Positions 1 through 20,422 of a stretch of DNA of 20,422 nt are shown here, one piece after another. The stretch is taken from NCBI GenBank assembly GCA_964396115.1, contig CAYNDL010000016.1:1-20422 (forward strand), written 5' to 3'. The number at the start of each line of letters is the position of its first letter. The stretch's first letter is position 1. The stretch is from an uncultured Candidatus Saccharibacteria bacterium (GTDB lineage Bacteria; Patescibacteriota; Andersenbacteria; UBA10190; CAIZMI01). The notes under the pieces were generated by a model. It was given only the letters and a program-made list of their open reading frames with translations, was not told where the DNA came from and did not search any database. The position numbers and the translations under genes were made by a program.

Positions 1-1
1 A

Positions 2-88
2 ATCATCATTATTGGAGTAGCTGCCGCCGTAGTAAATTTTGTAATCGGAGCAATAACAGGGAATATCGGAACGGGCGGGACGATTTAG
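2..88 (+). CDS. 3' end of an upstream gene (partial); hydrophobic C-terminus ...IIIIGVAAAVVNFVIGAITGNIGTGGTI*
   Basis: Open frame 2 runs from the window edge to TAG at 86-88. The peptide is Gly/Ala/Ile-rich, like a membrane segment. No start codon is visible because the gene is truncated by the window. Confidence 0.3.
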   Translation: MIIIGVAAAVVNFVIGAITGNIGTGGTI

Positions 89-94
89 GCACAA

Positions 95-122
95 GAAAAA
101 ACGGCGACCTTGCGATCGCCGT
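95..122 (-). terminator. Rho-independent terminator for the minus-strand gene 153..962
   Basis: Inverted repeat ACGGCGA(101-107)/TCGCCGT(116-122). On the minus strand it is followed by a U6 run, seen as plus-strand A95-A100. It lies 30 nt past the stop of the 153..962 gene. Confidence 0.6.
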
Positions 123-152
123 TTCGATGAAACGAACAATTAGCCTGTTTTA

Positions 153-962
153 CTACTGTGCAAAGTAGGAAACCGGTACACCCGGCGTGTACTCGTTCAC
201 GTCCAGCTGTGTCGCGCTCTTCTCGATGTTAACCGTGTAACTGCCGGGACGGATCAGGCTGGTGGAAAAAACCAACTGTCCTTCACGCGGCGTTTGACGG
301 TAGACGGAGAAGGGGCGACCTCTTTCGGTAAACGCTGTTGCCGGTGTATTCAACAAGTGGACGTTTCCGTCCATCTCGCGGACCCCAACACGAAAGTGTT
401 CGATCACTCCTTGAGTGGAGATGTAGTAGCACTCGCGTGGTCGTAGAGGCAGCTGCGTATTGATAAGCTGCTTCGGACTATTGGGACCCCCGACCGTAAA
501 CTTGAGTGTCCACCGGTTGTTACCGTGGGAGATGAGCTGAAAACCATCACCAGCCGGTACCGTTCCCGAAAAAGACGGAATGGTACTTTGTTGTCGGCCA
601 GTCGTGATCTCCTGTCGCACATCACGGATCTCCTTGCGGATATCCTGGAGCACCTCACCGGTTACTTGGCCGCCCTTCTTCACTCCACGGTCGTAGATTT
701 CGGCGGAAGACTTCTTGTAGTCCTCTCGCTTCATAGCGACGATAGGCGGCTGTGAGGACGTCGGTGTCCCGGTCGATGCGGCGTCTTCTTTCTTGTGACT
801 CCTGCTCATCGAAAAGATGGCGAGTGTCACTAAGAGAAGCAATGGGCCGGATGCCATAATGGCCAACCCTGACCATCGCGGCATATTACCGGGGGAGAAT
901 CTCCACCAGAGGACTCCGCCCAGAAATAGGGCGAAGGACAGGAAAACCAAAAAGTAGTACAT
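153..962 (-). CDS. Hypothetical membrane protein (two N-terminal TM helices, soluble C-terminal domain), co-operonic with the SPFH gene
   Basis: 269-aa ORF with 2 N-terminal hydrophobic helices. Only a 10-nt gap separates it from the upstream SPFH gene. High GC3, same as its neighbour. Confidence 0.6.
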   Translation of the reverse strand: MYYFLVFLSFALFLGGVLWWRFSPGNMPRWSGLAIMASGPLLLLVTLAIFSMSRSHKKEDAASTGTPTSSQPPIVAMKREDYKKSSAEIYDRGVKKGGQVTGEVLQDIRKEIRDVRQEITTGRQQSTIPSFSGTVPAGDGFQLISHGNNRWTLKFTVGGPNSPKQLINTQLPLRPRECYYISTQGVIEHFRVGVREMDGNVHLLNTPATAFTERGRPFSVYRQTPREGQLVFSTSLIRPGSYTVNIEKSATQLDVNEYTPGVPVSYFAQ

Positions 963-972
963 GAAGGGCCTC

Positions 973-2145
973 CTATATTGTGATTCTGAGCCTTCTCAAG
1001 AAATTGATGCCCTCGTCCAAGATTCGCTGTCTGGCGTCGGGGGCGAGGCCTTGAGTCATGCTCTCCAACAAATCCATGAAGTTCCTGCCTGATCGAGAGC
1101 CGGTTGCTGTGGCGGTGAGATTAAACAGATCAGTGGGGAAGAGGATAGCCTTTCCACCCTTCGCTGCTTCTCTCAACGTGAGCAACTTTTCTGCAAGCTG
1201 ATTCTGGGCGGTTTCGTCGCCTCCGCCGCCCCTAATCGTTGCAAACAGGATACGGCGGGCTGTTGCCTCACCTTCACCAACGCGTTCGAGCCGGTACTTC
1301 TCTCCGTCTGCCCGGTGCATCGCCGCTCTTGCTTCAATGATCGCCACCTCTTCGTTGTTGATGACAGTCCGAAGAGCATCGGGCAGCTCAACTTTGGGCA
1401 ACGACATCGATATGCATGCGGAGTCGGTGATCCCAGACCGTCGCAACGCCAAGCCGCCAGCTTTTCGGGGATCGAGAAGAGTCTCTTCGATCTCTTTCTC
1501 GATTTTGTTGCGGTCGTTGTAGACATCAACCCAAGTATGGCGGGATGCGACACGTCGCATGGCATCGTCAACTTCCGGCCGGATCAGCTCGACAAGTGCC
1601 GCGCTTACACGGCCGTCGGGCCCAATGGGGGACGGTGCGTTGACTACGGCGGGGGAAAGATGGCTGACGTCCCACTGGAAGTTAACATTTACTTCCAGGT
1701 TCAGTTCAGCCGACCCCACATTCCGTAGTTCCTTCGTCCGTCCTTTTCCTATTCTGGACTTGCCCGGCATCGTTACAACGCGTCCCACTTCTATGGGGAT
1801 CTGCTGCATCGTCATCGGGAAACGGTGGACACGGAAAAAAGGGAAGAGGAGGAACACAATTCCTGTACCGAACAATCCTTTGTCCGGCGGGGAAACAGGA
1901 ATTCGGTTACCGTGACAATCGTCACGCCACCCTCTTTTTTCGTCCTCGGTCAAAGTGACCCCGATTTCCTTCATTAGCTTGCCCAAGAGGACAGGCTTCA
2001 GGCGTTCATTCTCGCGAACAAACATCATTGAAAGGCCGATCTCTCCCAGCCCCATGAAAGTCAGAGCCCAAGACCAGGGGTTAATGAACCCGGCCAAGGC
2101 GGTCATGAGAGTGAGGATAGAGACGACCATAAAAGGGAATACCAT
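973..2145 (-). CDS. SPFH/band-7 (stomatin/prohibitin-like) domain membrane protein; the true start may be internal
   Basis: The C-terminal two thirds match the SPFH pattern: hydrophobic anchor, a beta-rich core (...VVNAPSPIGPDGRVSAALVELIRPEV...), then an Ala/Glu/Arg-rich coiled-coil (AIIEARAAMHRADGEKYRLERVGEGEATARRIL). The N-terminal ~90 aa carry extra TM helices, so the annotated start may be over-extended. C-ending codons are preferred. Confidence 0.6.
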   Translation of the reverse strand: MVFPFMVVSILTLMTALAGFINPWSWALTFMGLGEIGLSMMFVRENERLKPVLLGKLMKEIGVTLTEDEKRGWRDDCHGNRIPVSPPDKGLFGTGIVFLLFPFFRVHRFPMTMQQIPIEVGRVVTMPGKSRIGKGRTKELRNVGSAELNLEVNVNFQWDVSHLSPAVVNAPSPIGPDGRVSAALVELIRPEVDDAMRRVASRHTWVDVYNDRNKIEKEIEETLLDPRKAGGLALRRSGITDSACISMSLPKVELPDALRTVINNEEVAIIEARAAMHRADGEKYRLERVGEGEATARRILFATIRGGGGDETAQNQLAEKLLTLREAAKGGKAILFPTDLFNLTATATGSRSGRNFMDLLESMTQGLAPDARQRILDEGINFLRRLRITI

Positions 2146-2287
2146 GAGATGTTTCCTTGTCTAGTAGGTTGTCGAAGTTACAGGGGTTTCTACCGTGAAA
2201 TCGTAGCTAATTAAACTGCGATATCACGAAAGAAATGACTAATAATATACGTTAAAAAGAAGATGGTATTGTATACCTTTTTTGCGA

Positions 2288-2310
2288 TTTTGTCAATCGT
2301 ACTGACAAAA
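2288..2310. promoter_or_regulatory. Perfect 8-bp inverted repeat TTTTGTCA-N7-TGACAAAA (operator-like) in the divergent promoter region
   Basis: TTTTGTCA at 2288-2295 and TGACAAAA at 2303-2310 are exact reverse complements. They sit in the AT-rich 286-bp divergent intergenic between the SPFH gene and 2432..3175. Confidence 0.35.
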
Positions 2311-2331
2311 CAGGTAATTAATAATAAAGTA

Positions 2332-2360
2332 TTGACAAGTTTTATATTTTATGTAAAAAT
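2332..2360 (+). promoter_or_regulatory. Sigma70-like promoter candidate for 2432..3175 (TTGACA -35, A/T-rich -10 TAAAAAT)
   Basis: TTGACA at 2332-2337, a 16-nt spacer, then TAAAAAT at 2354-2360. This is about 70 nt upstream of the ATG at 2432. Confidence 0.3.
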
Positions 2361-2431
2361 GTCGGGTTCTTTCGATAACGCATATTGAGCTTACCCAACC
2401 CGTATCCTCTTGTTTAAAGGAATCGAGACTC

Positions 2432-3175
2432 ATGCCTCCGACCGACCCCAACCAGAATCCCCAGAACCCCACGCCGGACCCCAACAATACCCAGGTTCCG
2501 AACAACACGCAGGTGCCGCCGGCCGGCCCGGCCCCCGTCGTCACGCAGACGACGACCGTCCAGAGCGACCCGTCGCAGACCCCACCGAATCCGGCCACTA
2601 CGACCACGACTGATCCGGCGCCCGCCGCTGGGGCGACGGCCACTGCTCCCGCTACCGCTCGTCGTACGAGCGGATGGCTCGGCAAGGCCGTGATGGTCTT
2701 GCTGCTGCTCCTGGTTGTCGCTCTCCTCGGTATCAGCGTGGCCTTCATGCAGGACATGTACGCGCGGCGCAACGCGGCTTCCCAGTCGCAACAGCAACAA
2801 GCGAGCGAGTCGATGATCGTCCCGGCCTCCGGCGCGAAGATCGCGATGGGGAAGGAAACCTACCAACGGGCGGCGGCCACGATCCATGATCGCGGTTATG
2901 CCCAAGGCCTCAAGGTTACCGGGATCGAGATGCTGGACCTCAACAAAGCGATCGAGGTCGGCATGGAAGGTGTACGGAAGTACTCCGCCATCGAATCCGG
3001 GGTTCAGCCTCCACCTGATCCGGTGCAGACCCCCGCGAATCCGGCTGCGCCGGCCACCAAGAAGACTTCGGCAACCTTTCCGAGTGCCTTCAAATCAGTG
3101 GTCGGACAGATGGATCCGAACGCCCTCATTCGGGTCAGCGACCTGACCGCCGCAGTCACCAAGGCGGAAAAGTAG
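2432..3175 (+). CDS. Single-pass membrane protein with a Pro/Thr/Asn/Gln-rich N-terminus (NNTQVP x2, poly-Thr) and a globular C-terminal domain; no recognisable family
   Basis: 247-aa ORF. A low-complexity P/T-rich N-terminus precedes one strong TM helix (AVMVLLLLLVVALLGISVAF) and a ~150-aa ordinary-composition C-terminus. A terminator follows it. Confidence 0.6.
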   Translation: MPPTDPNQNPQNPTPDPNNTQVPNNTQVPPAGPAPVVTQTTTVQSDPSQTPPNPATTTTTDPAPAAGATATAPATARRTSGWLGKAVMVLLLLLVVALLGISVAFMQDMYARRNAASQSQQQQASESMIVPASGAKIAMGKETYQRAAATIHDRGYAQGLKVTGIEMLDLNKAIEVGMEGVRKYSAIESGVQPPPDPVQTPANPAAPATKKTSATFPSAFKSVVGQMDPNALIRVSDLTAAVTKAEK

Positions 3176-3220
3176 CGGCAGGGCTCAGAAGTGTGCGTTT
3201 TTTTGGGTCTAGAACCCAGA

Positions 3221-3249
3221 GACGCGGATGAAAGTCCGCGTCTTTTTTT
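3221..3249 (+). terminator. Rho-independent terminator
   Basis: GACGCGGA(3221-3228) tgaaag TCCGCGTC(3235-3242), followed by T7 at 3243-3249. Confidence 0.8.
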
Positions 3250-3260
3250 AAAGTTTAATA

Positions 3261-3290
3261 TTGACAGAAACCGGAAAATGGGTACATAAT
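3261..3290 (+). promoter_or_regulatory. Sigma70-like promoter (TTGACA-N18-CATAAT) for the 3345..3935 gene
   Basis: TTGACA at 3261-3266 and TACATAAT at 3283-3290. A GAGGAG Shine-Dalgarno at 3333-3338 sits 7 nt before the ATG at 3345. Confidence 0.45.
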
Positions 3291-3344
3291 CTACGTTCTG
3301 CTGTTTTTGCCAGATTGTCATGTCCTTTCCCAGAGGAGCGGTTT

Positions 3345-3935
3345 ATGTTCCGGATTTGGATGGTTGTGAGTGCTTTATTGGTGGTCGCTTCCCCTGCAAT
3401 GGGGCAGCGGTACTACCGGTCAGGCTGTGCGTCCTGTGTCGCGGTCCCCGGCCAACAGGCGGTTTGCACGAACCCGGCGGTGTGCGGAGTGCCGATGGCG
3501 ACGGCCGTCGTTCAGCCGGCACAGCCCGTGCAACCGGCAGCGACGACGGCGCCGAGTACCCTCGCGTGCCCGAAGGAAGTCGCACCTGCGGTCTCTACGG
3601 CGCCTGCGGTAGTGGCTTCTACGCCCGCCGTTACTCCACCGGCAAACTCAACGCCGGCGGCAAAGTCGTCGAAGAGCGATGCGGACGCGATCCCCTCGAT
3701 CAACCCTCTTTTGAACAAGCCGGCTAAGCAGGAACCTCCTGCGGATAAGCCGGCGGCAGCCGAACCGGCTCAGGGGCCCCCGGAGGAATTCGTGCCGAAG
3801 TCCATGGTGGAAGCCGGCCTGAAGGCGGCCTTCCAGAAGGGCATCGCCGCGGAGAAGAAGAAGTACAAGATCCTCTCGAAGAACGAGGTCGACTCGCTGA
3901 TCGAGAAGATCGTCGACGAGATGGACAAGGAATAG
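3345..3935 (+). CDS. Secreted protein: signal peptide, Cys-containing N-terminal motif, long Ala/Pro/Thr/Val-rich linker, charged amphipathic C-terminus
   Basis: The start is placed at ATG 3345 (MFRIWMVVSALLVVASPAMG...) on the basis of the promoter and SD. The six-frame ORF runs in from 3261, but that extension would cover the promoter itself. There are 4 Cys in CASCVAVPGQQAVCTNPAVC, then PA/TA repeats, then KKKYKILSKNEVDSLIEKIVDEMDKE. Confidence 0.55.
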   Translation: MFRIWMVVSALLVVASPAMGQRYYRSGCASCVAVPGQQAVCTNPAVCGVPMATAVVQPAQPVQPAATTAPSTLACPKEVAPAVSTAPAVVASTPAVTPPANSTPAAKSSKSDADAIPSINPLLNKPAKQEPPADKPAAAEPAQGPPEEFVPKSMVEAGLKAAFQKGIAAEKKKYKILSKNEVDSLIEKIVDEMDKE

Positions 3936-3976
3936 CATCTCGAAGTCCTGACCCGAGAAATCAAGGGAGTGAGGCA

Positions 3977-4001
3977 GACGGGAATAAATCCCGTCTTTTT
4001 T
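3977..4001 (+). terminator. Rho-independent terminator of the 3345..3935 gene
   Basis: GACGGGA(3977-3983) ataaa TCCCGTC(3989-3995), followed by T6. Confidence 0.75.
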
Positions 4002-4006
4002 GTATG

Positions 4007-4032
4007 AAAAAACCGGCACGCATGCGTGCCGG
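4007..4032 (-). terminator. Rho-independent terminator of the 4056..4664 gene (20-nt perfect palindrome plus U-run on the minus strand)
   Basis: CCGGCACGCATGCGTGCCGG at 4013-4032 is a perfect palindrome. It is preceded by A6 on the plus strand, which is U6 after the hairpin on the minus strand. It lies 24 nt past the minus-strand stop. Confidence 0.7.
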
Positions 4033-4055
4033 TGATCGATCTTGGTTCGAGGCGA

Positions 4056-4664
4056 CTATTCCTCGAATTTCCGGTAGTACTGGAACGTCCCTGTGGCATT
4101 CTCGGGAGCAGCCGGTTGCTGGATGATGTACGTCGGCTGGTTGATTGTGACGTTGACCGGTCGGTCGTCTTCATGAGGCGAAGCGCCGGAGCCCCAGTAG
4201 TACCATGGCCGGGATGGAACGCTGTGAGGAGGCCGGAGAAGGGGAGGTGTCCAACCACCCCAGTAGTTGCCATAGTCACCGGTGTAGTAACTCCAGAACG
4301 GAGCACCGCGATACCAGGGGAAGTACGTTCCTCCCCCAGGAACCCAACCGCCCCAACTGCTGCCGTAATTGCCGGTGTAGTGACTCCACATGGGAGCGCC
4401 CACCCTGTAGGGGACGTAGGTGCCGCCGCGCGAAACAGGTGTGCCGCCGAGGAACGACGGGGTGTGGTGAGGTACAGCTCTCACTGGACTCCCGATGTGG
4501 GTTACACCACTCGGTTTGAAGGAGGGCGCATGCGGGACACTTGGAGGACAGAAGCCGCGAGTCGGTGGATTGAACCTGACCGAGGGCGGGTGTCCAACGG
4601 GTGGTCCCGCGAACAGCGGAACCGCCATTCCAGATGCCAAGATGGTAAGAATGAACAATCGCAC
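4056..4664 (-). CDS. Secreted Gly/Tyr/Trp/Pro-rich protein with two tandem ~31-aa aromatic-glycine repeats; GTG start
   Basis: 202 aa with a signal peptide (MRLFILTILASGMAVPLFA). The repeats are GGTYVPYRVGAPMWSHYTGNYGSSWGGWVPG and GGTYFPWYRGAPFWSYYTGDYGNYWGGWTPP. A GAGGAG SD sits 8 nt before GTG at 4662-4664. A terminator follows it. The antisense ORF 4026..4709 is a GC-shadow. Confidence 0.55.
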   Translation of the reverse strand: MRLFILTILASGMAVPLFAGPPVGHPPSVRFNPPTRGFCPPSVPHAPSFKPSGVTHIGSPVRAVPHHTPSFLGGTPVSRGGTYVPYRVGAPMWSHYTGNYGSSWGGWVPGGGTYFPWYRGAPFWSYYTGDYGNYWGGWTPPLLRPPHSVPSRPWYYWGSGASPHEDDRPVNVTINQPTYIIQQPAAPENATGTFQYYRKFEE

Positions 4665-4740
4665 GGGTATTCTCCTCTGAAAAAGCGCCGGTACATCAGG
4701 AACAGGTAACGGCTATTTATACCACGTTTTATACTTTATT

Positions 4741-5076
4741 TCAAGGGGCGAGGGTTGGTAAGAATATCCTCAAAAAGTTAGGTTGCGTTTGCGGCTGTGT
4801 GACTCCGGGAGCAGCTTGGCCAGGAGCGTAGTAGTAGTTAGAAGATCCGACAGGATTATACGGAGTCATTAATCCTGGAGGGTAAGCATAAGCCGGAACG
4901 GGATCCTGAGCATATGCGTACGTTTGTAAGTACCACGTATACATTGGATCGCCTGGTTGCGTTGGCAGATATACGCCATTGTAAAAGATGGCTGCGTGTG
5001 ACAAATGCGGAAGTAACATTGCACCAGCTAGGACCGCGAGTATGAACAGGTATTTATGTAAGCGAGGAAATTTCAT
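4741..5076 (-). CDS. Small secreted Tyr/Pro-rich protein (signal peptide then YxY/PxY-rich low-complexity region)
   Basis: 111 aa. It opens MKFPRLHKYLFILAVLAGAMLLPHLSHA and continues Tyr/Pro/Gln-rich. It has the same flavour as 4056..4664 but moderate GC. No clear SD. Confidence 0.45.
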   Translation of the reverse strand: MKFPRLHKYLFILAVLAGAMLLPHLSHAAIFYNGVYLPTQPGDPMYTWYLQTYAYAQDPVPAYAYPPGLMTPYNPVGSSNYYYAPGQAAPGVTQPQTQPNFLRIFLPTLAP

Positions 5077-5146
5077 AATATGATAAAAGCATCTTATTGT
5101 GGCGGCTTGTCAATGTAAGTAATTAAACGCACACTTTATTAACTAA

Positions 5147-5227
5147 GGGCACGTGGCGGAACGGTATACGCGCATGGCTTAGGACCATGTGACGCAAGTC
5201 GTGTGGGTTCGATTCCCACCGTGCCCA
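5147..5227 (+). tRNA. tRNA-Leu (anticodon UAG), type II with long variable arm; CCA not encoded
   Basis: Manual fold. Acceptor GGGCACG/CGTGCCC is perfect. The D-stem is 3 bp with G18G19 in the loop. Anticodon stem CATGG/CCATG is perfect, and loop CTTAGGA gives U33 and anticodon TAG. The variable arm is 13 nt. T-arm is GTGGG TTCGATT CCCAC, and the discriminator is A. Confidence 0.85.
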
Positions 5228-5229
5228 CA

Positions 5230-5266
5230 CAGTAAAAAGGCTGCTTTCAGGCAGCCCTTTTTACTG
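5230..5266 (+). terminator. Strong Rho-independent terminator after the tRNA
   Basis: 15/16-nt inverted repeat CAGTAAAAAGGCTGC tttcag GCAGCCCTTTTTACTG. The GC core is followed by a U5 run. Confidence 0.7.
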
Positions 5267-5295
5267 TGTTAGAGTGAGCCAACTGCTTGGCTCAC

Positions 5296-5410
5296 GTGTG
5301 GGAATCGAAAGGCGGAGCGTTGCACGAGTTTGTGAAGCAAGGCTAGTGCCGCGAGCCAGGGTCGCTAAATTTTTCCGTCAGGAAAAATATTTGTGACCGA
5401 TTCCCACAGT
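5296..5410. repeat. Inverted pair of short tRNA T-arm-derived fragments flanking a hairpin-rich ~100-nt segment
   Basis: Minus-strand 5296-5307 is TTCGATTCCCAC, 12/12 identical to the tRNA T-loop and stem. Plus-strand 5398-5410 CGATTCCCACAGT matches the tRNA 3' region 12/13. The two pair as a 10-bp long-range helix (GTGGGAATCG/CGATTCCCAC) enclosing GCGG...CCGC and other stems. Confidence 0.3.
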
Positions 5411-5485
5411 TCTTGAACTTCTAATTAATTAAATATAAATTAGGAATCTGTCCTTTTTGTCTCCCGAAGTCACAGGATACGAATC

Positions 5486-5866
5486 ATGCTGATCCTCACT
5501 ATCCAAGGTATCCCCCAGATGAACGAGGAACTTTTGGCACGTTTCATTAGGGATTTGCAGTTCGGCATTAACAGCATCGCCGAGCTAGGAATCACTCCCA
5601 TGAACGTGACCGTGTTTATGCCGTCGGATAGGGTGCAGGAAGGTCTTGGAGACGAGCTGATATGCACCATTTACTCACTCCCAGACATCACAAAAAACGC
5701 GCTCCGCTTTCGTCTCATGAAGCATGTGTACTGGCTGATCTGCGGCTTTGCAAGAACGAATCTCGAGGAGTGCAAGAAGGTCGCTGTTGTTTTTCCTCCA
5801 ATCAACATCCGCGACCATATGGAAGGAGACCCACATACCTTTTCTGATCAACCCAGCCACGGCTAG
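5486..5866 (+). CDS. Hypothetical protein, 126 aa, no recognisable domain
   Basis: ORF with AGGA 8 nt upstream of the ATG. A clean terminator overlaps its stop. Composition is typical of the host-like moderate-GC region. Confidence 0.45.
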   Translation: MLILTIQGIPQMNEELLARFIRDLQFGINSIAELGITPMNVTVFMPSDRVQEGLGDELICTIYSLPDITKNALRFRLMKHVYWLICGFARTNLEECKKVAVVFPPINIRDHMEGDPHTFSDQPSHG

Positions 5867-5881
5867 CTCCGTGGTTTTTTT
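5857..5881 (+). terminator. Rho-independent terminator (CCACGG ctagct CCGTGG + T7); its loop contains the stop codon of 5486..5866
   Basis: Stem 5857-5862 and 5869-5874, with a T-run at 5875-5881. It overlaps the last 2 nt of the convergent glycosyltransferase gene. Confidence 0.75.
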
Positions 5882-6860
5882 AAGCCAGCTCGCGGCGTGT
5901 CAACGAGTCCACTGGAACTTTTTGTAACTTTGTTTTTCGGTATATGTGTAGGTATTCGTCCGCTACTTGGTCCCATGAGAAAAGACGAGCAGTGTATTGA
6001 GCAAGTCTGCGTGCTTCAACTTTCGCTTGTTTGTATTTTTCATGCTGCTCCTTGAGGGCAGCGCGAACAAGTTTGGAGGAGTAACCAGGAATAAATGACG
6101 CATTATTGCGCAATGCCTCCTGGTGTTCGGGAGTTTCGATACTTATAATCGGTGCTTCGTAAAGCGCGAGCTGTCTAACAGTCCCCGCGAATCGGAGTGG
6201 CTGCAGGAGAAGAATCGAATGGGCGCGTCGAAGTAATTCCTTGTTCTGTGTATCAAATATCCTCTGCTCGTCGGTTATGTTTAACATTTCAATATTTTCG
6301 CCCTTGATTTGTTTGATGTATTTCCGAACACGCAAAAACGTTTCCGCTGAGGAAATAATCACAACGATTCTTTTGCCTATCTTTCTTTTGATCCCTAAAG
6401 TAACTGCCTGCGGGACATAACGGGGAAGAGTATGGAAGCGACGGAACGTAACGTATTGCAGCATCTTTTGAGTAGTCACCACCTGGTCAGCCAGACGGAT
6501 GCCGAACCATGTGCCGAAGCGGATGTACGTTCTTTGCAGGAATCTTTTTTCTGGTTGGAATTCCTCCTGGTCATGCAAGGAAAATATTACCGATGAACCG
6601 AAACGTAATTTTGCGGCGGGGAGCAAAAAGGCGGTGAAGGCACCATGAAAATCGAAGATGTCGGCTTTTGCGAAGAGAATCTTGAAGAAGGAACCAAAAC
6701 CTTTTTTTATGATTCGTGCTTCATGACCAAGTTTTTTGTATTCCCACAATAATTGCAGAACAGTCTGCTGTTCAAATTCTGATGGTTTTTTCCGTATAAT
6801 TAGAACGATGGACGCCATGAAATGCCAAACTAACAGATGGTGGTCGGGAACGTCAAACAA
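5880..6860 (-). CDS. GT-B fold glycosyltransferase (GT4-like, divergent); the true start may be the internal Met 15 (MASIVLIIRKK...)
   Basis: The C-terminal ...FSWDQVADEYLHIY resembles the conserved SWE/D..A..Y..Y tail of GT4 glycosyltransferases. A YEAPIIS segment sits at the usual E-x7-E position, with a Rossmann-like alternation. Family assignment is by motif memory only. Confidence 0.5.
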   Translation of the reverse strand: MFDVPDHHLLVWHFMASIVLIIRKKPSEFEQQTVLQLLWEYKKLGHEARIIKKGFGSFFKILFAKADIFDFHGAFTAFLLPAAKLRFGSSVIFSLHDQEEFQPEKRFLQRTYIRFGTWFGIRLADQVVTTQKMLQYVTFRRFHTLPRYVPQAVTLGIKRKIGKRIVVIISSAETFLRVRKYIKQIKGENIEMLNITDEQRIFDTQNKELLRRAHSILLLQPLRFAGTVRQLALYEAPIISIETPEHQEALRNNASFIPGYSSKLVRAALKEQHEKYKQAKVEARRLAQYTARLFSWDQVADEYLHIYRKTKLQKVPVDSLTRRELA

Positions 6861-6935
6861 TCTTGGTTGAAGAGAATAGTCTAAACATTAAACTCTTGAC
6901 ATAACCCTCATTGTGGGGTAAAGGAGAAAATAACT

Positions 6936-9632
6936 ATGGCAACAACAACATGTGAAAATTGCAAAATTCGGCCAGCTGCTCTAACGCTTCTGCGCACCGT
7001 TAATGGAAAGGAACAACGGATGAATCTTTGTCATACCTGCGCAGAGGATTTGCAGGTCTTTGGTTCAGAATTTGCTGATTTCGGGTCCTTCTTTAATGAC
7101 CCTTTTCTTGGTGCCCGGCGCGTTCCAGGCTGGCAGCCTCGAGAAGAAGAAAGAGTAAACATATTGGAAATGTTTGCGGAACGTGCTAAGGGAGTGGTGG
7201 CGAAAGCTGCCGCCGTAGCTCAGGAGAGAGGGGTAAAATATCTGGACACGGAACACTTGTTGATTGGGGTAGCGGAGGAACCTGAAGTGGGAGCTAAATT
7301 GTTGAAAGCATTAGATGTAAATCCTGATGACCTTATCAGTTACTTAAAAGAGAATACCCCGGCCGGGGAACCTCACACTGCTGAACCAGAACTTTCTCCC
7401 CGCGCGAAGCAGGCATTGGAGCTCGCTTTCCATGCTTCCAGGAATCTTGAGCATGACTATGTTGGAAGTGAACACATTTTGCTTGGCTTGATTATGGAAG
7501 AGGAAGGTTTAGCCGCCCAGACTTTAAAGAAGTACGGCATTACTGAAGTAAAAGCGAGACAGGCACTGTTATCTTTAGTCGGAGCGAAAGGAAAGAAGAA
7601 AGGACCCGTTGTGGAGAAAAGTAAGACGCCGACTTTAGACGAATATTCACGGGATCTTACTCAATTAGCGCATGAGAATAAACTAGATCCGGTTATCGGA
7701 AGGGCATCGGAAGTGCAGCGCGTTATCCAAATTTTGAGCAGACGTACAAAAAATAATCCCGTGTTGATTGGTGAACCTGGTGTTGGTAAAACGGCCATAG
7801 CAGAAGGACTTGCAGCCCGCATAGCAGCAGGAACTGTGCCAGAAGTTTTGAATGGTAAAAGAGTACTATCGCTTGATTTGCCAGGCATGCTGGCTGGTAC
7901 AAAGTACCGCGGTGAATTCGAGGAAAGATTGAAAAAAGTAATCGATGAAATACAAAAAGCCCAAGGAGGGATAATCTTGTTCATCGATGAGCTTCACACA
8001 GTCGTTGGGGCAGGTTCAACAGGGGAAGGTGGCGGGCTAGATGCCGCGAATATTTTGAAACCGGCATTAGCTCGAGGGGAACTGCAGGCAATCGGCGCTA
8101 CGACACTAAACGAATACAGGAAATACATCGAAAAAGATGCGGCGCTCGAAAGACGTTTCCAGCCAGTCATGGTGGCAGAGCCGTCAGTTGCCGATTCGAT
8201 CGAAATTTTACGTGGACTGAAGGATCGCTATGAAGCGCACCATAAAGTCAGAATTACTGATGAAGCAATCCAGGCAGCCGCAGTTCTCTCGGACAAATAT
8301 TTACGCGATAGGTTTCTGCCTGATAAAGCAATTGATCTAATGGATGAAGCAGCAGCTAAAGTTCGATTGTCCGCCCTTGAGCAGCCGGAAGAGATGTCTC
8401 ACAAGGAAGTTGAAATCAAACGTTTGAAGCGGGAGAAGGCAGCGGCGCAACGTGCAAATAATAAGGAGAAAACTAAGACTTTAACTGCCGAATTGGAGAA
8501 GTTAAACAAAGAGATTGCTGACATGCAATCACAATGGCACAAGCGACGTGGAACTACTGACCTTGAAGTTCTTGCTTCGGATATTGAACAGATCATCGCG
8601 CAGTGGACAGGTATCCCTGTAGAAAAACTGTCTGCATCGGAACTGGATCGTTTGCTGAACCTGGAACAACTACTGCACCAAAGAGTGATTGCCCAGGAAG
8701 AGGCGATTAGAGTTGTATCGGAAGCAATTCGGAGGGCCCGTGCAGGAATGAAAGATCCTAAACGTCCTATCGGCTCGTTCTTGTTCCTAGGCCCAACGGG
8801 AGTGGGGAAGACCGAATTGTCCCGTGCTCTAGCCAACACATTATTCGGCGACGACAATGCGATGATCAGAATTGATATGTCTGAATACATGGAGAAACAT
8901 TCAGTCGCTCGCTTGATTGGATCTCCTCCTGGATACGTGGGTTATGAAGAAGGCGGACAGCTAACCGAAAGGGTTAGAAGAAAGCCCTACAGTGTAATCT
9001 TGCTGGACGAGATAGAAAAAGCTCATCCGGACATTATGAATGTCCTGCTTCAGGTACTGGATGATGGACGGCTAACGGATGGCAAAGGAAAGACGGTAGA
9101 TTTCAAAAATACAATTATTATTGCGACTTCCAATGTCGGAAGTAAGGAAATCCACGAAGCCACTTCTTTGGGTGTCCCTAATTCGGATGTTTGGAACAAG
9201 CTTAAACAGGCTTTATTGGAGCATCTTAAGGAAGTGTTTCGTCCGGAATTTTTGAATCGCTTGGATGAGATCGTTGTCTTCCATGCCTTAACAAAGGCCA
9301 ATGTTCAACAGATAACCGATCTTATTTTGCAGGAAGTAAGCCGTCGCATGCATGCGCAAGGGTATACATTAAAGGTTAGCGAAGATGTGAGAAATCGCCT
9401 CGCGCAAGATGGTTTTGATCCCAGTTTTGGCGCACGTCAGCTGCGGAGGGAAGTGCAACGTCGTCTCGAAAATCCTTTGGCGACGGCGTTGCTTAGACAA
9501 ACGTTTCCTCGCGGAGCGGAAATAACTGCGCAATTAAATGGGGACGATGTTGAATTTGTGGTCGGGAAAGGGTCTGGGAATAAGGGAAGAGGAGTTCACA
9601 CTAGGAAAAAGCCGGAAAAAGTGGGAAGTTGA
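6936..9632 (+). CDS. clpC: ClpC-type Clp/Hsp100 class I AAA+ chaperone/unfoldase with an extra N-terminal Cys4 zinc ribbon
   Basis: Two Clp_N repeats. Walker A GEPGVGKT in D1 and GPTGVGKT in D2. The coiled-coil M-domain is short, which is ClpC-like rather than ClpB-like. The D2-small domain is present. The N-terminus has CxxC-x22-CxxC (CENC...CHTC). LGV (residues 745-747) sits where ClpC usually has the ClpP-binding VGF loop. An AGGAG SD precedes the ATG. Confidence 0.9.
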
Positions 9633-9656
9633 GCATTTTAAACAAGACAGTTGCCG

Positions 9657-9687
9657 GGTAGGCTAGTGGCCTACCTTGCTTCTTTTT
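9657..9687 (+). terminator. Rho-independent terminator of clpC
   Basis: GGTAGGC(9657-9663) tagtg GCCTACC(9669-9675), followed by a T-rich tail TTGCTTCTTTTT. Confidence 0.7.
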
Positions 9688-9717
9688 AGCCTATATGTTA
9701 CGTTATACGCCATAAGT

Positions 9718-9987
9718 ATGAGCAAAGTAGACGCGGAAAAACCGAAAATTATTCAGAAGTACCGTTTGCATGACTCCGATACAGGGTCTCCTGAAGTTCA
9801 AATCGCGATCTTCACCGAGAAGATCTCTGAGTTGACAGAGCACCTGAAGAGTCACAAGAAGGACCAACATTCCCGCAGGGGCTTATTGGGAATGGTGAGC
9901 AAAAGGAAACGCCTGCTTACTTACTTGCAGCGCGAAGATCCTTCTCGGTACTCACAAATCATAAAAAAACTCAAGCTTAAAGGGTAA
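9718..9987 (+). CDS. rpsO: 30S ribosomal protein S15
   Basis: [71 protein letters not shown]... matches the S15 signature ([22 protein letters not shown]). The rpsO-pnp synteny is conserved. The six-frame ORF is TTG-extended upstream. ATG 9718 is preferred, and it lies 30 nt after the clpC terminator. Confidence 0.85.
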
Positions 9988-10198
9988 GAAGCGTTGGAGG
10001 AATCCCTGAAGCAAGGTTTTAAGGGATCCCTCGGGCGTTCCCTTATCATCATTCGTGCCGTAGCTTTCCAGGAACGCGTATCCTGTTCTTGGTCTCTACA
10101 CACACATGGTTTATTGAAGTGTTGGTACACTTCTCAAAAACCTTGTTGCGTGGCGATCAGAGAAGGGAACGAAGGCAGCGGAAAGAAAGGTAAAAAAT
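9988..10198 (+). promoter_or_regulatory. Structured rpsO-pnp intergenic region / pnp 5' leader (hairpins; likely processing/autoregulation site)
   Basis: 210-nt non-coding gap. It holds imperfect hairpin GGAATCCCT...AGGGATCCC (10000-10035) and perfect hairpin GAAGTG ttggta CACTTC (10118-10135). The E. coli pnp leader is a known RNase III/PNPase autoregulatory target. Confidence 0.35.
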
Positions 10199-12310
10199 AT
10201 GGAATTTCCTAGTTCTCGGGAATTTAAAAAAACCATCGCTGGAGAAGAGTTTATTTTAAAGGTTGGAGGTCTAGCTCCACAAACAGACGCCTCGGTCTCG
10301 TGCCAGGTTGGCGGTACTTTCGTATTGGCAACTGTAGTTATGGCGAGTACAGCGCGGCCCGGTGTCGATTATATGCCACTATTGGTTGAATATGAGGAAA
10401 AGTATTATGCCGCAGGGAAAATAAAAGGTAGCCGTTTTGTTAAAAGGGAAGGTCGACCGACTGACACGGCAATTACGACGAGCCGAATGATCGATAGGGC
10501 GCTTCGTCCACTTTTCCCGGATAACATGTTGAATGATGTCCAGGTTGTAACAACAGTCTTGTCTTACGACGGTGAACACCAAACTGATGTTCCGGCCATG
10601 ATCGCAGCTAGTGCCGCCTTGTCTATCTCACGAGTGCCGTGGGCTGGACCACTTGGCGCGGTACGTGTTGGAAGAGTCGATGGAAAGTTCGTAGTAAATC
10701 CGTTAGTAGCCAGCTTCGATAAAAGTGATCTGGATTTAATTGTCTCAACTACTACCGAGGAAGTGGTGATGCTTGAAGCTGACGGCAAAGAAGTGGCAGA
10801 TGCTGATCTTTTTGAAGCAATCAAATTCGGGCGGGAGGAGTCTGTTGAAATAGCTAAGTTAATTGCGGAAATCCAAAAAGAGATTGGCGTTGCGAAATCC
10901 GAATACATTTCGGCAACCGCGTCGCCTGAACTGACCGAAAAGGTACGAAATGCAGCTTTGCCGACGGCTCAAGAGATCGTAAGTGCTGGTGGCAAGAAAA
11001 TGGATATAGAGAACAAGTTCGCTACTTTGACCGATAAAATTATTGCGGATTTGGCTTTGGAGGCAAATGATGCGAGTTTGGCAAAAAAGGTTGTTCGAGA
11101 CACATACCGGGAAGTCGTCCGTGACTTCATTCTTGATTCTGGAAAACGCGTAAACAACAGGAAGGTTGATGAGGTTCGTGAAATTAAAGCACAGGTAGGA
11201 GTAATTCCAAGAACTCACGGCTCAGCCCTTTTCCAGAGAGGGGAGACGCAGGTTTTAACTACAGTTACCCTCGGTGCTCCCGGTGATTCCATGATCCTGG
11301 ATACAATGATTGATGAGGAGTTCGAGAAACGCTATATGCACTTCTATAATTTCCCCGGTTTTTCTGTACATGAAGTACGGCCGAATCGAGGACCTGGCCG
11401 GCGCGATATCGGACACGGTGCCCTAGCGGAACGAGCACTGGCACGGTTGATTCCGAATAAGGAACAATTCGGCTATACCGTTATGGCAGTTTCTGAAGTT
11501 CTATCGTCTAATGGTTCCAGTTCAATGGGTTCAGCTTGCGGTAGCTCGCTTGCTTTGATGGATGCTGGTGTTCCGGTGCCTGCCACTGTCGCTGGTATTG
11601 CTATGGGGTTGGTAACTGATGAGAAAGGGCAGAATCGTAAGCCTGTGGTTTTGACCGATATCGCTGGAATGGAAGATGAAGGTTGCGATATGGACTTCAA
11701 GGTTGCAGGTACAAGAAATGGTGTTACTGCGTTGCAAGTTGATATCAAGACTCATGGTCTCCCATTGGAGATTATTGAAGAAGCTATCAAGGGAGCTCGA
11801 GTTGCCCGCCTGCACATAATGGAAACCATGGAGGCCGCAATAAAAGAACCAAGAAAAGAGATGTCTCCTTATGCTCCACGTCTCCTCACTATTCGTATAA
11901 ATCCTGAAAAGATCGGTGACCTTATCGGTCCAAAAGGAAAGAATATTAACCAGATTATTGCGGAAACAAAGGTAGATATCGATGTAGAGGATGACGGTCT
12001 GGTAACCATTACTGCGAAAGACGGCGATTCAATGGAAAAAGCTAAACAGATGGTTGAAAGCCTTACTAGGGAAGTTGTTGCTGGTGAACGCTTTGACGGC
12101 CGCGTTACGCGTATTATGAAGTTCGGAGCTTTCGTCGAAGTTCTCCCTGGAAAGGAAGGTCTGGTGCATATCTCAGAGCTAGCCCCTCAACGAGTCAACA
12201 GGGTAGAGGATATCGTTAAAATCGGTGACGTCATTCCTGTTGTGGTGACCGAGATAGACGATCAGGGAAGAATTAACCTTTCTCACAAGCGCGCAAAACA
12301 TGTAAACTAA
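10199..12310 (+). CDS. pnp: Polyribonucleotide nucleotidyltransferase (PNPase): two RNase PH domains, KH and S1
   Basis: 703 aa. Diagnostic motifs include GEEFILKVGGLAPQTDASV, FFQRGETQVLT, HGSALF..., MAVSEVLSSNGSSSMGSACG, KIGDLIGPKGKNI (KH) and the C-terminal S1 GERFDGRVTRIMKFGAFVE. Confidence 0.95.
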   Translation: MEFPSSREFKKTIAGEEFILKVGGLAPQTDASVSCQVGGTFVLATVVMASTARPGVDYMPLLVEYEEKYYAAGKIKGSRFVKREGRPTDTAITTSRMIDRALRPLFPDNMLNDVQVVTTVLSYDGEHQTDVPAMIAASAALSISRVPWAGPLGAVRVGRVDGKFVVNPLVASFDKSDLDLIVSTTTEEVVMLEADGKEVADADLFEAIKFGREESVEIAKLIAEIQKEIGVAKSEYISATASPELTEKVRNAALPTAQEIVSAGGKKMDIENKFATLTDKIIADLALEANDASLAKKVVRDTYREVVRDFILDSGKRVNNRKVDEVREIKAQVGVIPRTHGSALFQRGETQVLTTVTLGAPGDSMILDTMIDEEFEKRYMHFYNFPGFSVHEVRPNRGPGRRDIGHGALAERALARLIPNKEQFGYTVMAVSEVLSSNGSSSMGSACGSSLALMDAGVPVPATVAGIAMGLVTDEKGQNRKPVVLTDIAGMEDEGCDMDFKVAGTRNGVTALQVDIKTHGLPLEIIEEAIKGARVARLHIMETMEAAIKEPRKEMSPYAPRLLTIRINPEKIGDLIGPKGKNINQIIAETKVDIDVEDDGLVTITAKDGDSMEKAKQMVESLTREVVAGERFDGRVTRIMKFGAFVEVLPGKEGLVHISELAPQRVNRVEDIVKIGDVIPVVVTEIDDQGRINLSHKRAKHVN

Positions 12311-12345
12311 AAGAGATAGGGTTTTCCCCAAGACACCAAACAAAA

Positions 12346-14028
12346 ATGAATCAAGACCAACAACGCGAAATTCCCAAAACACCGCAAAAGGCAGCAGAAG
12401 AAGCTCTTTCTGCTACTTTTGCTATGCCTTTTATTCGCACTATGGCCGACGACCTTCTTGAGGCATCGCGGGGAACGCCTCCGGTTGTACAGCAGGTGCC
12501 AGTTAACGGAGTAACCCCACAAAGGAATGCAGAACCTAATAATGCTCCTGAGGTATTTTATGGCGATCCCAGGAAGGCTAATATTCCGATTCCACAAGTT
12601 AGGATTGGGGGCGTTGCAAAGTCACAGCAGCAAGTTAAGGGGAACGAAGTTTTTCTACCTGAAACTGAGAAAAGGAAGGGTGTTGGTCTAAGTTTGGTAG
12701 TTGGTGTCATTCTTGCTTTAGTTATATGTGGCGGTGTCTGGGGCTCGTGGCTTTTGTGGCCACGTGAATCGGGAACAATAGCTGACAAAATTCCGGCAGA
12801 GGCGGTCGCTTTTATGAATGTGAGTCGGGAAAAAGGCGTGTTGCAGCAGGTCGCACTTGATAGTTTCATTGGCGATTTTGGCTTAACCAAGGAAAAACTC
12901 GGAGATAGCTGGAACAACATTGTTTACGTAGCGCTTCCCGGTGCATCACCCTCAGAGCCGATAAAGATGCTTCTTGTTGATGGGCAAGCGCCCCAAACTG
13001 ATAACCCAAACATCGTTGTAAAAACTTTGGCCTCTGGCGCTACAGCCTTGATCGAAGCTGCACAATCCGGGAGAGTCGATGGCCTAAGCAATAAACCTCT
13101 CGGCAAAACTAATGACTTTAGGCGTTTGGTGGGTAAGTTGCCTCAAGGAAATGAATATTTGTACATACGGCAGGGGCAAGTGCCGACGTTTTTGAAGTCT
13201 TATGTTTATCTGCCCATAGATGTTGATTATTCAACATTGATAACGTTTGCGTCTGAAATGAAGCAGGGGACAGTGGCGGTATACGGAATGAATAATGGAC
13301 CGAAGAAAAAAGTCAGCAACGAGCAGGTAGTGTGGCAGAACATGTTGAAACCGGTCCCGGTTTCCGTCGTCGCTGCTGCTGGTCACAATAATCTAGAGGC
13401 AAATGTGGATGAGTGGCGCCTGGGTCAGTCCAACAACGCCAAAATGCAAGATTTCTTGAACGCCCTAAATGCTCGTTCCAAGACATTAACGGATCTCAAA
13501 AATGTGACTACGGGTCGTTATGTGGCAGGATCGTTGAGGGAGACAATCGACGGATTTGCTGTAATAGAGTTGAAAGAGAATAGCCGTGAAACTGCAGTTG
13601 CTGGGATGAATGGTCTCGAGGAAGCATTCAATAAACTTGGGCAGCTTATCGGTAATGCATCGTACGCCGATGCCTCGTTTGGAGAAACGTCCTATAAAGA
13701 TGTAACCATCCGTTTTGTGAATTTCGGTGACGCTAACCATACTTTTGACTACGCGGTACTGGACAACTTGTTGGTAGTGTCTACGTCGAAAGATAGTATG
13801 TTTGAATTAATTAATACTTACCAAAATCAAGACCAAGGAGCCTCGTTCATGTCGTTACTTGCAGGGCTTAACGCTGGCGCTGGTCAGTGGCAATATGTAC
13901 GTTTGGACAGTGCTGCCACATCTAAGGTACCAGCACTCTGGGTGACAATTTTCAGGCCTTTTGCGTTCCTATACATCGAACCAAGCAGTACACCCCAGGC
14001 ATTCAGCGGGATTGTGGCAATTCCATAG
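12346..14028 (+). CDS. Large hypothetical membrane-anchored protein (cytoplasmic N-terminus, one TM near residue 110-140, ~420-aa extracytoplasmic domain)
   Basis: 560-aa ORF with TM helix GVGLSLVVGVILALVICGGVWGSWLLW. No SD. No recognisable catalytic motif. A strong terminator follows it. Confidence 0.55.
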   Translation: MNQDQQREIPKTPQKAAEEALSATFAMPFIRTMADDLLEASRGTPPVVQQVPVNGVTPQRNAEPNNAPEVFYGDPRKANIPIPQVRIGGVAKSQQQVKGNEVFLPETEKRKGVGLSLVVGVILALVICGGVWGSWLLWPRESGTIADKIPAEAVAFMNVSREKGVLQQVALDSFIGDFGLTKEKLGDSWNNIVYVALPGASPSEPIKMLLVDGQAPQTDNPNIVVKTLASGATALIEAAQSGRVDGLSNKPLGKTNDFRRLVGKLPQGNEYLYIRQGQVPTFLKSYVYLPIDVDYSTLITFASEMKQGTVAVYGMNNGPKKKVSNEQVVWQNMLKPVPVSVVAAAGHNNLEANVDEWRLGQSNNAKMQDFLNALNARSKTLTDLKNVTTGRYVAGSLRETIDGFAVIELKENSRETAVAGMNGLEEAFNKLGQLIGNASYADASFGETSYKDVTIRFVNFGDANHTFDYAVLDNLLVVSTSKDSMFELINTYQNQDQGASFMSLLAGLNAGAGQWQYVRLDSAATSKVPALWVTIFRPFAFLYIEPSSTPQAFSGIVAIP

Positions 14029-14049
14029 AAATTTAAAAAGTAAAAAACA

Positions 14050-14077
14050 GGAGACACGACTGTCTCCCGTTTTTTTA
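14050..14077 (+). terminator. Rho-independent terminator
   Basis: GGAGACA(14050-14056) cgac TGTCTCC(14061-14067) cg, then T7. Confidence 0.8.
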
Positions 14078-16738: not shown

Positions 16739-16760
16739 ATTAACCGTTGGTCTTTCCTGA

Positions 16761-20334: not shown

Positions 20335-20422
20335 TGATTGAGAATCTTGTGAGCTGGGTCGAGGTGTTTGTTGTCCTCGGCATCCTCAGTTCCATCGCGA
20401 TCGTTCTGCTTGGTTTTGGACG
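20335..20422 (+). CDS. 5' end of a membrane protein gene (partial; MIENLVSWVEVFVVLGILSSIAIVLLGFG...)
   Basis: ATG at 20335, then a hydrophobic TM-like segment, open to the window edge. No canonical SD at the right spacing. Confidence 0.35.

Follow-up and report, generated by a model that had tools for sequence, protein, structure and literature searches.

A GC-rich segment beside tRNA-Leu(UAG) in a Candidate Phyla Radiation bacterium is an ancestral, hypervariable gene module at a fixed position

Genes and composition of the segment

The window analyzed here is a stretch of 20,422 nucleotides from a Candidate Phyla Radiation (CPR; Parcubacteria-group) bacterium with a genome of about 1 Mb. 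Its left end carries a GC-rich segment of five genes, at approximately 150–4700, close to a tRNA-Leu(UAG) gene, and an earlier note on this DNA had described this segment as a probable horizontally acquired island. Compared with the corresponding loci of related lineages, the segment proves to be a gene module of ancestral origin, hypervariable yet fixed in position and probably encoding envelope proteins, and not inserted foreign cargo. The genome background examined was about 40 kb of the organism's own genome, and relatives were compared over 5–21 kb each.

On its left, the segment is bordered by a terminator hairpin (98–125, minus strand) made of a 12-pair stem and a T-run, which lies between a convergent pilin gene ending at about 88 and a gene encoding a 269-aa protein (153–962, minus strand; GC content at third codon positions, GC3, 0.64). 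The next gene (973–2145, minus strand; GC3 0.62) encodes a 390-aa SPFH/Band-7 protein with an N-terminal transmembrane (TM) helix. SPFH proteins are membrane scaffolds, and the assignment made in the earlier note was confirmed by a match to PF01145 of 44.7 bits (cut-off 23.6, E = 2e-11), above the Pfam gathering score. The two genes form an operon with a gap of 10 bp, and the 269-aa product is hereafter called the SPFH partner. Two TM helices at its N-terminus are followed by a helical linker, which contains a YDRG motif, and by a beta domain of about 130 aa at the C-terminus. Neither the partner nor its relatives matched a Pfam family (E ≤ 0.01), NfeD included, or an NCBIfam family, the NCBIfam scan giving nothing meaningful, and a single-sequence AlphaFold model of the partner (pLDDT 41) was too poor for an OB-fold test. 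The partner family is small (about 16 clusters), and two giant proteins also contain its C-terminal beta domain, repeated 19 times in tandem in one and 6 times in the other, suggesting that this repeat-capable domain may be an exposed, adhesin-like binding module.

The SPFH gene is separated from a divergent gene by an AT-rich region (2146–2431, GC 0.34) with near-consensus sigma-70-type sites in both directions, TTGACA-17-TACAAT for SPFH (2296–2268, minus strand) and TTGACA-17-AAAAAT for its neighbor (2332–2360, plus strand). This neighbor (2432–3175, plus strand) encodes a 247-aa protein, rich in Pro, Thr, and Ala, that has one TM helix and carries a 'YDxG...G...ADEG..KY'-type motif; it contains an 18-bp tandem repeat (2483–2518), has the highest GC3 of the segment (0.78), and is referred to as the YDxG gene. 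The following gene (3345–3935, plus strand; GC3 0.76), which has its own promoter (3261–3290) and its own terminator (3976–3996), encodes a 196-aa protein that is rich in Ala and Pro and contains a signal peptide or a TM helix. The related locus L004, described below, showed no counterpart of this gene, which may be a paralogue of the 247-aa gene specific to its lineage. The last gene (4056–4664, minus strand; terminator 4033–4012; GC3 0.66) encodes a secreted 202-aa Pro/Gly/Tyr-rich protein with an internal 'YYTGxYG..WGGW' repeat.

Near-consensus pairs of TTGACA and −10 boxes were found at 7 sites in the AT-rich intergenic regions, compared with 3.0 ± 1.7 in shuffled sequences. The AT-rich intergenic promoters with TTGACA boxes reported earlier are thus present, and the view that these genes are plausibly expressed in their host stands, since native-type promoters and terminators are there. 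By hydropathy, each of the five segment proteins shows a TM helix or an N-terminus that resembles a signal sequence, and, with the repeated beta domain of the partner family, this may indicate components of the envelope or cell surface. The module consists of one or two YDxG single-pass membrane proteins with Pro/Ala/Thr-rich tails, an SPFH/Band-7 scaffold, its co-transcribed partner, and a secreted Tyr/Gly/Pro-rich repeat protein.

The sliding GC content was 0.52–0.66 over 1–4750 and 0.42–0.49 over 4750–14000, and the block values were 0.561 for 1–4700 and 0.465 for 4701–14000. The earlier note was therefore right that the segment is richer in GC than the remaining window, although the size given for the contrast (about 60% against the low-to-mid 40s) was slightly overstated. 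The GC3 of the five genes (0.62–0.78) was well above that of clpC (0.43), pnp (0.41), a gene encoding a 560-aa protein (0.45), and comM (0.39), and more generally above the 0.39–0.48, typically about 0.44, found across clpC, pnp, comM, gyrA, the SBP gene, and others. When the five genes were compared with the 27 others of the 40-kb neighborhood, the separation was nearly complete (Mann-Whitney p = 3e-4; gene z 2.4–4.5). The atypical composition and codon usage of a genomic island are thus found here, against this background of about 40 kb. Two sub-blocks can be distinguished, 153–2145 (GC 0.55) and 2432–4664 (GC 0.61–0.65), divided by the AT-rich promoter region, and the change-point optimum fell at 2433–4632.

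Recoding the segment genes with core codon usage predicted a GC content of 0.47–0.54 and a GC3 of about 0.44, short of the 0.55–0.65 GC observed. The richness in Pro, Ala, Gly, and Thr therefore makes up a minority of the excess in three genes, the rest being due to synonymous choice, and amino-acid bias alone was ruled out as the cause. Codons ending in C and in G (NNC and NNG) were both enriched, which also ruled out a translational preference for C-ending codons alone. These results bear out the earlier claim that the contrast goes beyond a low-complexity Pro/Ala/Gly bias.

An abrupt compositional change could also arise if the assembly had wrongly fused the contig of a GC-rich organism with a CPR contig near 4700 or 150, and the abruptness is all that speaks for such a chimera. 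The window is identical to a 1,017,689-bp JGI metagenome contig (L008) across their overlap; a 1,017,687-bp JGI contig from a sister sample shows 3 mismatches to the window sequence in 10.9 kb, and a Logan contig has the same sequence. Both junctions recur in these two JGI assemblies from different samples and in the Logan contig, and the gene order is the same in related lineages, whose assemblies come independently from ENA, JGI, and Logan. We therefore exclude a chimera, giving this explanation a negligible probability.

Conservation of the locus in related lineages

Word-indexed protein searches were insensitive for such fast-evolving proteins. Among 5.8 billion proteins, SPFH retrieved itself and a single relative (48% identity by BLASTP), located on a 138-kb contig (L004), and a GT-like gene of the window retrieved only itself, missing a known orthologue with 39% identity. 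Three other loci (L092, L093, and L095) came from a metagenome scan using the SBP as an anchor, the SBP being 47–50% identical to that of the window's genome in L092 (tblastn 47, pairwise 50) and 42–44% identical in L093 and L095. Four more (L174 to L177) were obtained by looking up members of the partner family; the contigs of L174 and L175 are short. The closest named relatives of comM belong to Parcubacteria-group CPR bacteria. No clpC closer than 65% identity was found among reference genomes, and the contig of the closest species representative (65%) stops 210 bp past the tRNA and is thus uninformative on the segment.

In the genome of the window, the 10 kb to the left of the segment contain seven tandem pilin genes of the type IV secretion system (T4SS) type (PF18895), followed by SBP, a methyltransferase (MT), and gyrA. 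In L004, the order is pnp, S15, clpC, the GT-like gene, tRNA-Leu(UAG), the Tyr-rich gene, a gene encoding a small TM protein (minus strand), SPFH and its partner (both plus strand), seven pilin genes, SBP, MT, and gyrA. The order is the same in L092, including tRNA-Leu(UAG), and SPFH followed by its partner, a convergent pilin array, and then SBP, MT, and gyrA was found in L004, L092, L176, and L177. SPFH precedes the partner throughout L174 to L177, convergently with pilin genes in L174, L176, and L177; L174 ends within the pilin genes, with the same local arrangement. The partner was thus located directly downstream of SPFH in all four of the family-member loci fetched and in L004. In L093 and L095, a Band_7 gene (PF01145, 56.8 and 45.7 bits, respectively) and a small downstream membrane gene lie between the pilin genes and tRNA-Leu(UAG). 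In total, nine related loci, including all those named above, have a syntenic SPFH or SPFH-like gene.

The other genes of the segment recur as well. Homologues of the YDxG gene, divergent from SPFH and sharing the TM helix and the 'YDxG...ADEG..KY' motif, were found in five lineages (the window, L004, L174, L175, and L176), and a Tyr-rich secreted protein in four (202 aa in the window, 225 aa in L004, 260 aa in L176, and 150 aa in L092). The adjacency to tRNA-Leu(UAG) holds in relatives wherever the contig reaches that far: this tRNA gene is an ancestral neighbor of the locus in L004, L092, L093, L095, and L103, and it adjoins clpC in L011. Since the module recurs at the same slot across relatives, it is ancestral, and every gene class of the segment can be assigned to it, as judged from sequence similarity and gene order. 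The fixed slot lies between the tandem array of T4SS-type pilin genes on one side and tRNA-Leu(UAG), the GT-like gene, and clpC on the other. The module is constantly linked to the pilin array, which suggests a possible role at the cell surface or in host contact. The array itself (window 1–88 together with 10875–14036 of L002; PF18895/TrbC-like) has 7 copies in L004, L092, L176, and L177 and 3–5 in more distant relatives.

The earlier note had proposed a classical island, integrated at the 3' end of tRNA-Leu, with an integrase outside the window. The compositional contrast is real, the tRNA gene is indeed nearby (5147–5228, against 5147–5227 in the note), partial copies of its T-arm occur close to it, and compositional genomic islands have been reported in Patescibacteria (PMC12455944). 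However, the tRNA gene is on the plus strand with the segment on its 5' side, and its 3' end is therefore directed away from the segment. In 40 kb, the only matches of at least 10 nt to the tRNA are located 70 and 170 nt downstream of it, within 180 bp on its 3' side, and at the distal boundary no tRNA-derived repeat was detected, only a 9-nt chance match inside a gene; repeats of the attachment (att) type bounding the segment were therefore rejected. The end of the island had been expected to the left of position 1. Instead, the GC content drops to 0.43–0.47 directly to the left of about 150 and stays so for 10 kb, placing the boundary inside the window, at the convergent-gene terminator (98–125).

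No Pfam family of integrases was detected among the genes called between window-equivalent positions −9847 and about +30000, that is, in the window and about 10 kb on each side, so that the absence of an integrase noted earlier extends to both flanks. The leftward extension advised in the note, run over 10 kb, revealed neither an integrase or recombinase nor a repeat of the tRNA 3' end. The flank to the right of the window (about 10 kb) contains small open reading frames (ORFs) and a HisK/RR pair. A blastn search with 100–4750 gave no match in PLSDB or INPHARED, and scans of IMG/VR with SPFH and with a 255-aa protein from a second GC3-rich cluster (cluster 2, see below) found no relatives. PHROGs gave only a weak 'lipoprotein' match for SPFH and a marginal one (E = 0.0012) for one cluster-2 protein, without links to phages, and an origin from a phage or plasmid was rejected. 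The presence or absence of the segment was also compared: SPFH and the small downstream membrane gene occupy the slot in every relative examined, and no empty site was found in the nine related loci, which include no relative above 90% identity beyond the same population.

The segment genes thus appear to be clade-specific and not borrowed cargo, and the adjacency to tRNA-Leu is best read as inherited ancestral synteny and not as a trace of integration. An island integrated at the tRNA, contradicted on four defining features overall, is very improbable. Of the acquisition proposed in the earlier note, the distinct composition stands and gene flow is among the leading explanations for it, but integration at tRNA-Leu with an outlying integrase does not.

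Divergence of the alleles and origin of the GC3 excess

Judged by their flanking genes, the window, L004, L176, and L177 stand at similar distances from one another (gyrA 84–87%, pilB 75–85%, SBP 67–76%, and MT 69–76% identical). SPFH is 44–51% identical among the window, L004, and L177, and only 25–28% between any of these three and L176, whose allele is closest to that of L175 and not to those of its sister lineages. The identity of the partner was 27–40% throughout. The locus thus has the features of a replacement-type locus, that is, conserved collinear flanks and alleles that are both more divergent than these flanks and incongruent with them, as judged from pairwise identities and not from a tree. 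Over 10.9 kb, the assemblies of the two samples differ by only three single-nucleotide polymorphisms (SNPs), all of which lie within the segment (1405, 3916, and 3950). One of them alters the SPFH protein, and the exact SPFH product of the window is not on record.

The codon signature also recurs. The GC3 excess of SPFH and its partner over the core was +0.17 in the window, +0.12 in L004, and +0.16 in L176, the YDxG gene has a GC3 of 0.78–0.84 in the same three lineages, and the module is richer in GC than its own flanks in L004 (0.50–0.58 vs. 0.36–0.46) and in L176. In all, the module is GC3-enriched in three of four sister lineages. L174, which carries the same locus, is GC-rich throughout (0.60; pilin GC3 0.77). 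The relative synonymous codon usage (RSCU) of the window module correlated with that of the L004 module (r = 0.73), the L176 module (0.76), cluster 2 (0.74), and above all the whole L174 contig (0.85), but not with that of the core sets (−0.14), which correlated among themselves at 0.75–0.89. The module codon signatures correlated mutually at 0.70–0.76, and a dominance of CTC among the leucine codons is common to the segment, cluster 2, and L174.

Cluster 2 is a set of seven small, lineage-specific genes with no Pfam match, located about 15 kb away between comM and the HisK/RR pair (window-equivalent 20727–25681), with a GC3 of 0.56–0.73. The region in which it lies (20271–25681; 11953–17363 in L008) opens with a 94-aa ORF (GC3 0.51) that starts inside the window (20271–20422). 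The slot of cluster 2 is conserved in L172, a sister CPR lineage, but its content is not homologous, and sister genomes have non-homologous GC3-rich ORFs in the same variable slots.

Repeated allele replacement by homologous recombination with GC-richer members of the clade is the explanation that we favor for the composition of the module, at a confidence of about one half. It is favored because the allele classes are incongruent, the compositional boundaries are sharp and coincide with the module ends, a GC-rich relative has the same locus, and the codon usage of the module matches that of this relative (RSCU 0.85). The slot would behave as a replacement-type flexible locus, with conserved flanks and with allele classes that do not track the flanking genes; it would be refreshed repeatedly with GC-richer clade alleles through recombination in these flanks, and the incoming alleles would then be expressed from native-type promoters. 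What was observed is the composition with its boundaries, the synteny, the divergence of the alleles and their incongruence with the flanks, and the common codon signature; the direction and the mechanism of the exchange, as well as a function at the envelope or surface, are inferred.

Several points weigh against this explanation. L177 and L092 have the module without a GC3 excess of SPFH and its partner (+0.03 and −0.05, respectively). Searches of 5.8 billion proteins, by a method insensitive for fast-evolving proteins, and of 1.84 billion representatives turned up no near-identical donor allele; the closest SPFH is 51% identical to that of the window, and the one from GC-rich L174 only 33%. 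GC3 is heterogeneous within the module with a recurring rank (the YDxG gene, then the Tyr-rich gene, the partner, and SPFH in both the window and L004, the YDxG gene also being the highest in L176 with 0.78). A block from one donor would be expected to be more uniform, and this pattern therefore favors gene-specific forces acting in place. The intergenic GC inside the segment (0.34–0.52) is as low as in native intergenic DNA, and the composition-normalised tetranucleotide signature differs only moderately (0.61–0.64 for the segment against the core, 0.82 for core against core). The clustering of the SNPs in the segment has a p of only about 0.07. Finally, the comparison is small in extent, with only about 40 kb of the own genome and 5–21 kb per relative.

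Some of these observations would be accounted for if the module were inherited vertically and evolved fast, its GC3 being raised in place by codon selection in abundant envelope proteins or by GC-biased gene conversion (gBGC) at a recombination hot spot, with the same force acting at other flexible slots. In agreement with such a force, the gene-specific rank of GC3 recurs in the window and L004 despite saturated synonymous sites, the intergenic regions remain AT-rich, and the segment keeps the core's preference for the leucine codon TTG (RSCU 1.57) while CTT, ATT, and GTT are replaced by CTC, ATC, and GTC. A mild GC3 excess of SPFH was measured even in the AT-rich distant relatives L093 (+0.10) and L095 (+0.07), and the GC3 of the ribosomal protein S15 gene is raised in the window (0.57) and in L004 (0.51), relative to cores of 0.39–0.47. 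On the other hand, S15 shows only the NNC preference and not the NNG preference of the segment. The pilins, presumably abundant, are not enriched (GC3 0.34–0.49), and the fast-evolving GT-like gene (39% identity), as well as the 560-aa gene, have an ordinary GC3. The absence of a module excess in L177 and L092 and the incongruence of the SPFH allele classes with their flanks also argue against a force acting in place. To our knowledge, the differences ascribed to gBGC in bacteria amount to a few percent, far below the shift of +0.2 to +0.35 GC3 seen here. According to passages of PMC4450053 that give no comparable effect size, GC3 is higher in recombining genes in 11 of 14 bacterial groups, which is in favor of such a force. 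An increase in place is the main rival of allele replacement, although we consider it distinctly less probable. Somewhat more doubtful still is a broader proposal, in which the flexible genes of the clade would be richer in GC3 than its core through such a force (e.g., gBGC at variable slots), making a small genome bimodal with a polarity opposed to that of the usual AT-rich accessory genome, and in which the SPFH/YDxG/beta-domain module beside the pilin array would be a hitherto undescribed CPR surface system, conserved but diversifying rapidly.

Another explanation would be that the common ancestor of the sister lineages acquired the module once, long ago, from a donor with a high GC content and that amelioration has been incomplete since. 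This could explain why the GC excess is common to the modules of the window, L004, and L176, and why their codon signatures intercorrelate. According to the amelioration argument of Lawrence and Ochman, an inherited compositional excess is said to decay over time. At four-fold sites under identical core residues, the window and L004 share 0.30–0.36 of third bases, close to the saturation expectation of 0.26–0.28. As synonymous sites are thus saturated, a GC3 excess dating from before the split should largely have decayed, yet an excess of up to +0.35–0.45 persists, implying that it was maintained or re-introduced. Moreover, the synteny of SPFH, the small membrane gene, and tRNA-Leu reaches deeper (L092, L093, and L095), with little or no excess there, and the equally close sister L177 has none. 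Such an acquisition is improbable in our view, far more so than either replacement or an increase in place.

Whichever of these processes has operated, composition-based tools would call the GC/GC3 anomaly beside a tRNA gene an island, when it is here an ancestral module at a fixed position. Estimates of horizontal gene transfer in CPR genomes that rely on composition (IslandViewer-type calls, PMC12455944) may thus include such loci. Flexible genes richer in GC than the core, combined with saturated synonymous divergence, also make this locus a tractable case for weighing gene flow within the clade against GC-biased conversion or selection. In addition, a conserved yet hypervariable set of membrane and secreted proteins, linked to a T4SS-type pilin array, is a candidate host-contact surface of these presumably epibiotic cells.

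Neighboring features and comparison with known systems

In the genome of the window, two extra small ORFs flank the block formed by tRNA-Leu and its trailer. The first (4741–5076, minus strand) encodes a 111-aa Tyr/Pro-rich protein with a signal peptide and lies just beyond the GC-rich block with an ordinary GC3 (0.44). The second (5486–5866, plus strand; 126 aa) is located on the 3' side of the tRNA, is absent from L004, and has a raised GC3 (0.63); this ORF is perhaps another flexible gene with the same type of composition as the segment. The tRNA-Leu and trailer block (window 5147–5410; L004 7829–8100; L011 211–295) is inverted with respect to clpC when compared with L004, L011, and L092, and its orientation in L093, L095, and L103 is that of the window.

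The tRNA trailer (5229–5410, plus strand) contains two hairpins, one a terminator and the other conserved, as well as a long-range stem. Positions 5298–5309 are a 12-nt exact reverse complement of the T-loop and 3' T-stem of the tRNA itself (7977–7988 in L004), and they pair with a downstream direct copy in the trailer to form the long-range stem. The window and L004 differ in 3 of the 12 T-arm positions, and the trailer copies covary with their own tRNA. RNAalifold predicted a conserved structure with 14 of 40 pairs changed on both sides, from two sequences only (window 5229–5410 and L004 7913–8100). The complement of the T-arm is absent from the trailers of L011, L092, L093, L095, and L103, and a search against Rfam yielded no match for the trailer of the window or for the AT-rich spacer. 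The element may function as a structured RNA or pair with the tRNA for regulation, or it may be a scar left by recombination; the stem is not an att repeat bounding the segment.

Further to the right, a 2.3-kb AT-rich stretch (14029–16372, GC 0.25–0.33) has no ORF above 61 aa, no repeats, and no Rfam match, in an otherwise compact genome. Its end just upstream of a dksA-type gene (15870–16364) is 76% identical to a sister lineage (L171, 7776–8268) despite the saturated synonymous sites, which points to a conserved non-coding element. In L171, the same slot contains AT-rich DNA preceded by a GC3-rich ORF of 307 aa. GC3 is unusually low in the dksA-type zinc-finger gene (0.26) and in lspA (0.33; both genes 16373–17198), with 0.30 and 0.31 in the sister, against about 0.44 for the core, so that the window holds three compositional classes. 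In L172 (comM 73%), a chemotaxis cluster (508–9971; MCP, CheW, CheB, CheA, CheC/X, CheD, and several response regulators) lies directly upstream of comM; at this place, dksA, lspA, and small ORFs are found in the window's genome. At its N-terminus, ClpC is extended by about 75 aa (6936–7160) with a CxxC...CxxC motif (...LCHTCAEDL) ahead of the Clp_N repeats; this extension is kept in L004, and the match in L011 begins at residue 6.

Among known systems, tRNA-associated integrative islands share with the segment a compositional contrast and a tRNA neighbor. Unlike them, the segment has no integrase, flanking direct repeats, or mobile-element genes, it lies on the wrong side of the tRNA, and no relative has an empty site.

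The resemblance is closer to replacement-type flexible islands, such as those for O-antigen, capsule, or glycosylation, a concept from the work of Rodriguez-Valera and Lopez-Perez, in which alleles are exchanged by homologous recombination in the flanks, with no integrase involved. Similar to these islands, the segment occupies a fixed slot with conserved collinear flanks, has barely alignable alleles of atypical composition and no integrase, and its products are predicted to be membrane-anchored or secreted. It differs from them in being an SPFH-centered protein module and not a set of glycosyltransferases, and in being richer in GC than the core, when such islands, like most accessory genes, usually have the higher AT content. 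Furthermore, the lineages compared here share about 85% identity in gyrA and are not strains of one species, and the exchange between them is deduced from their alleles.

SPFH-NfeD operons, in which a stomatin, a flotillin, or YqiK is combined with an NfeD partner, are the third system to be considered. As in these operons, the SPFH gene appears to share its transcript with a gene for a small membrane protein, in which N-terminal TM helices precede a beta-rich soluble domain at the C-terminus. However, the partner in the segment lacks an NfeD or other Pfam match (E ≤ 0.01) and lies downstream of SPFH, and its C-terminal domain recurs as 6–19 tandem repeats in giant proteins. The segment also adds to the SPFH pair the YDxG and Tyr-rich proteins and the linkage to a pilin array.

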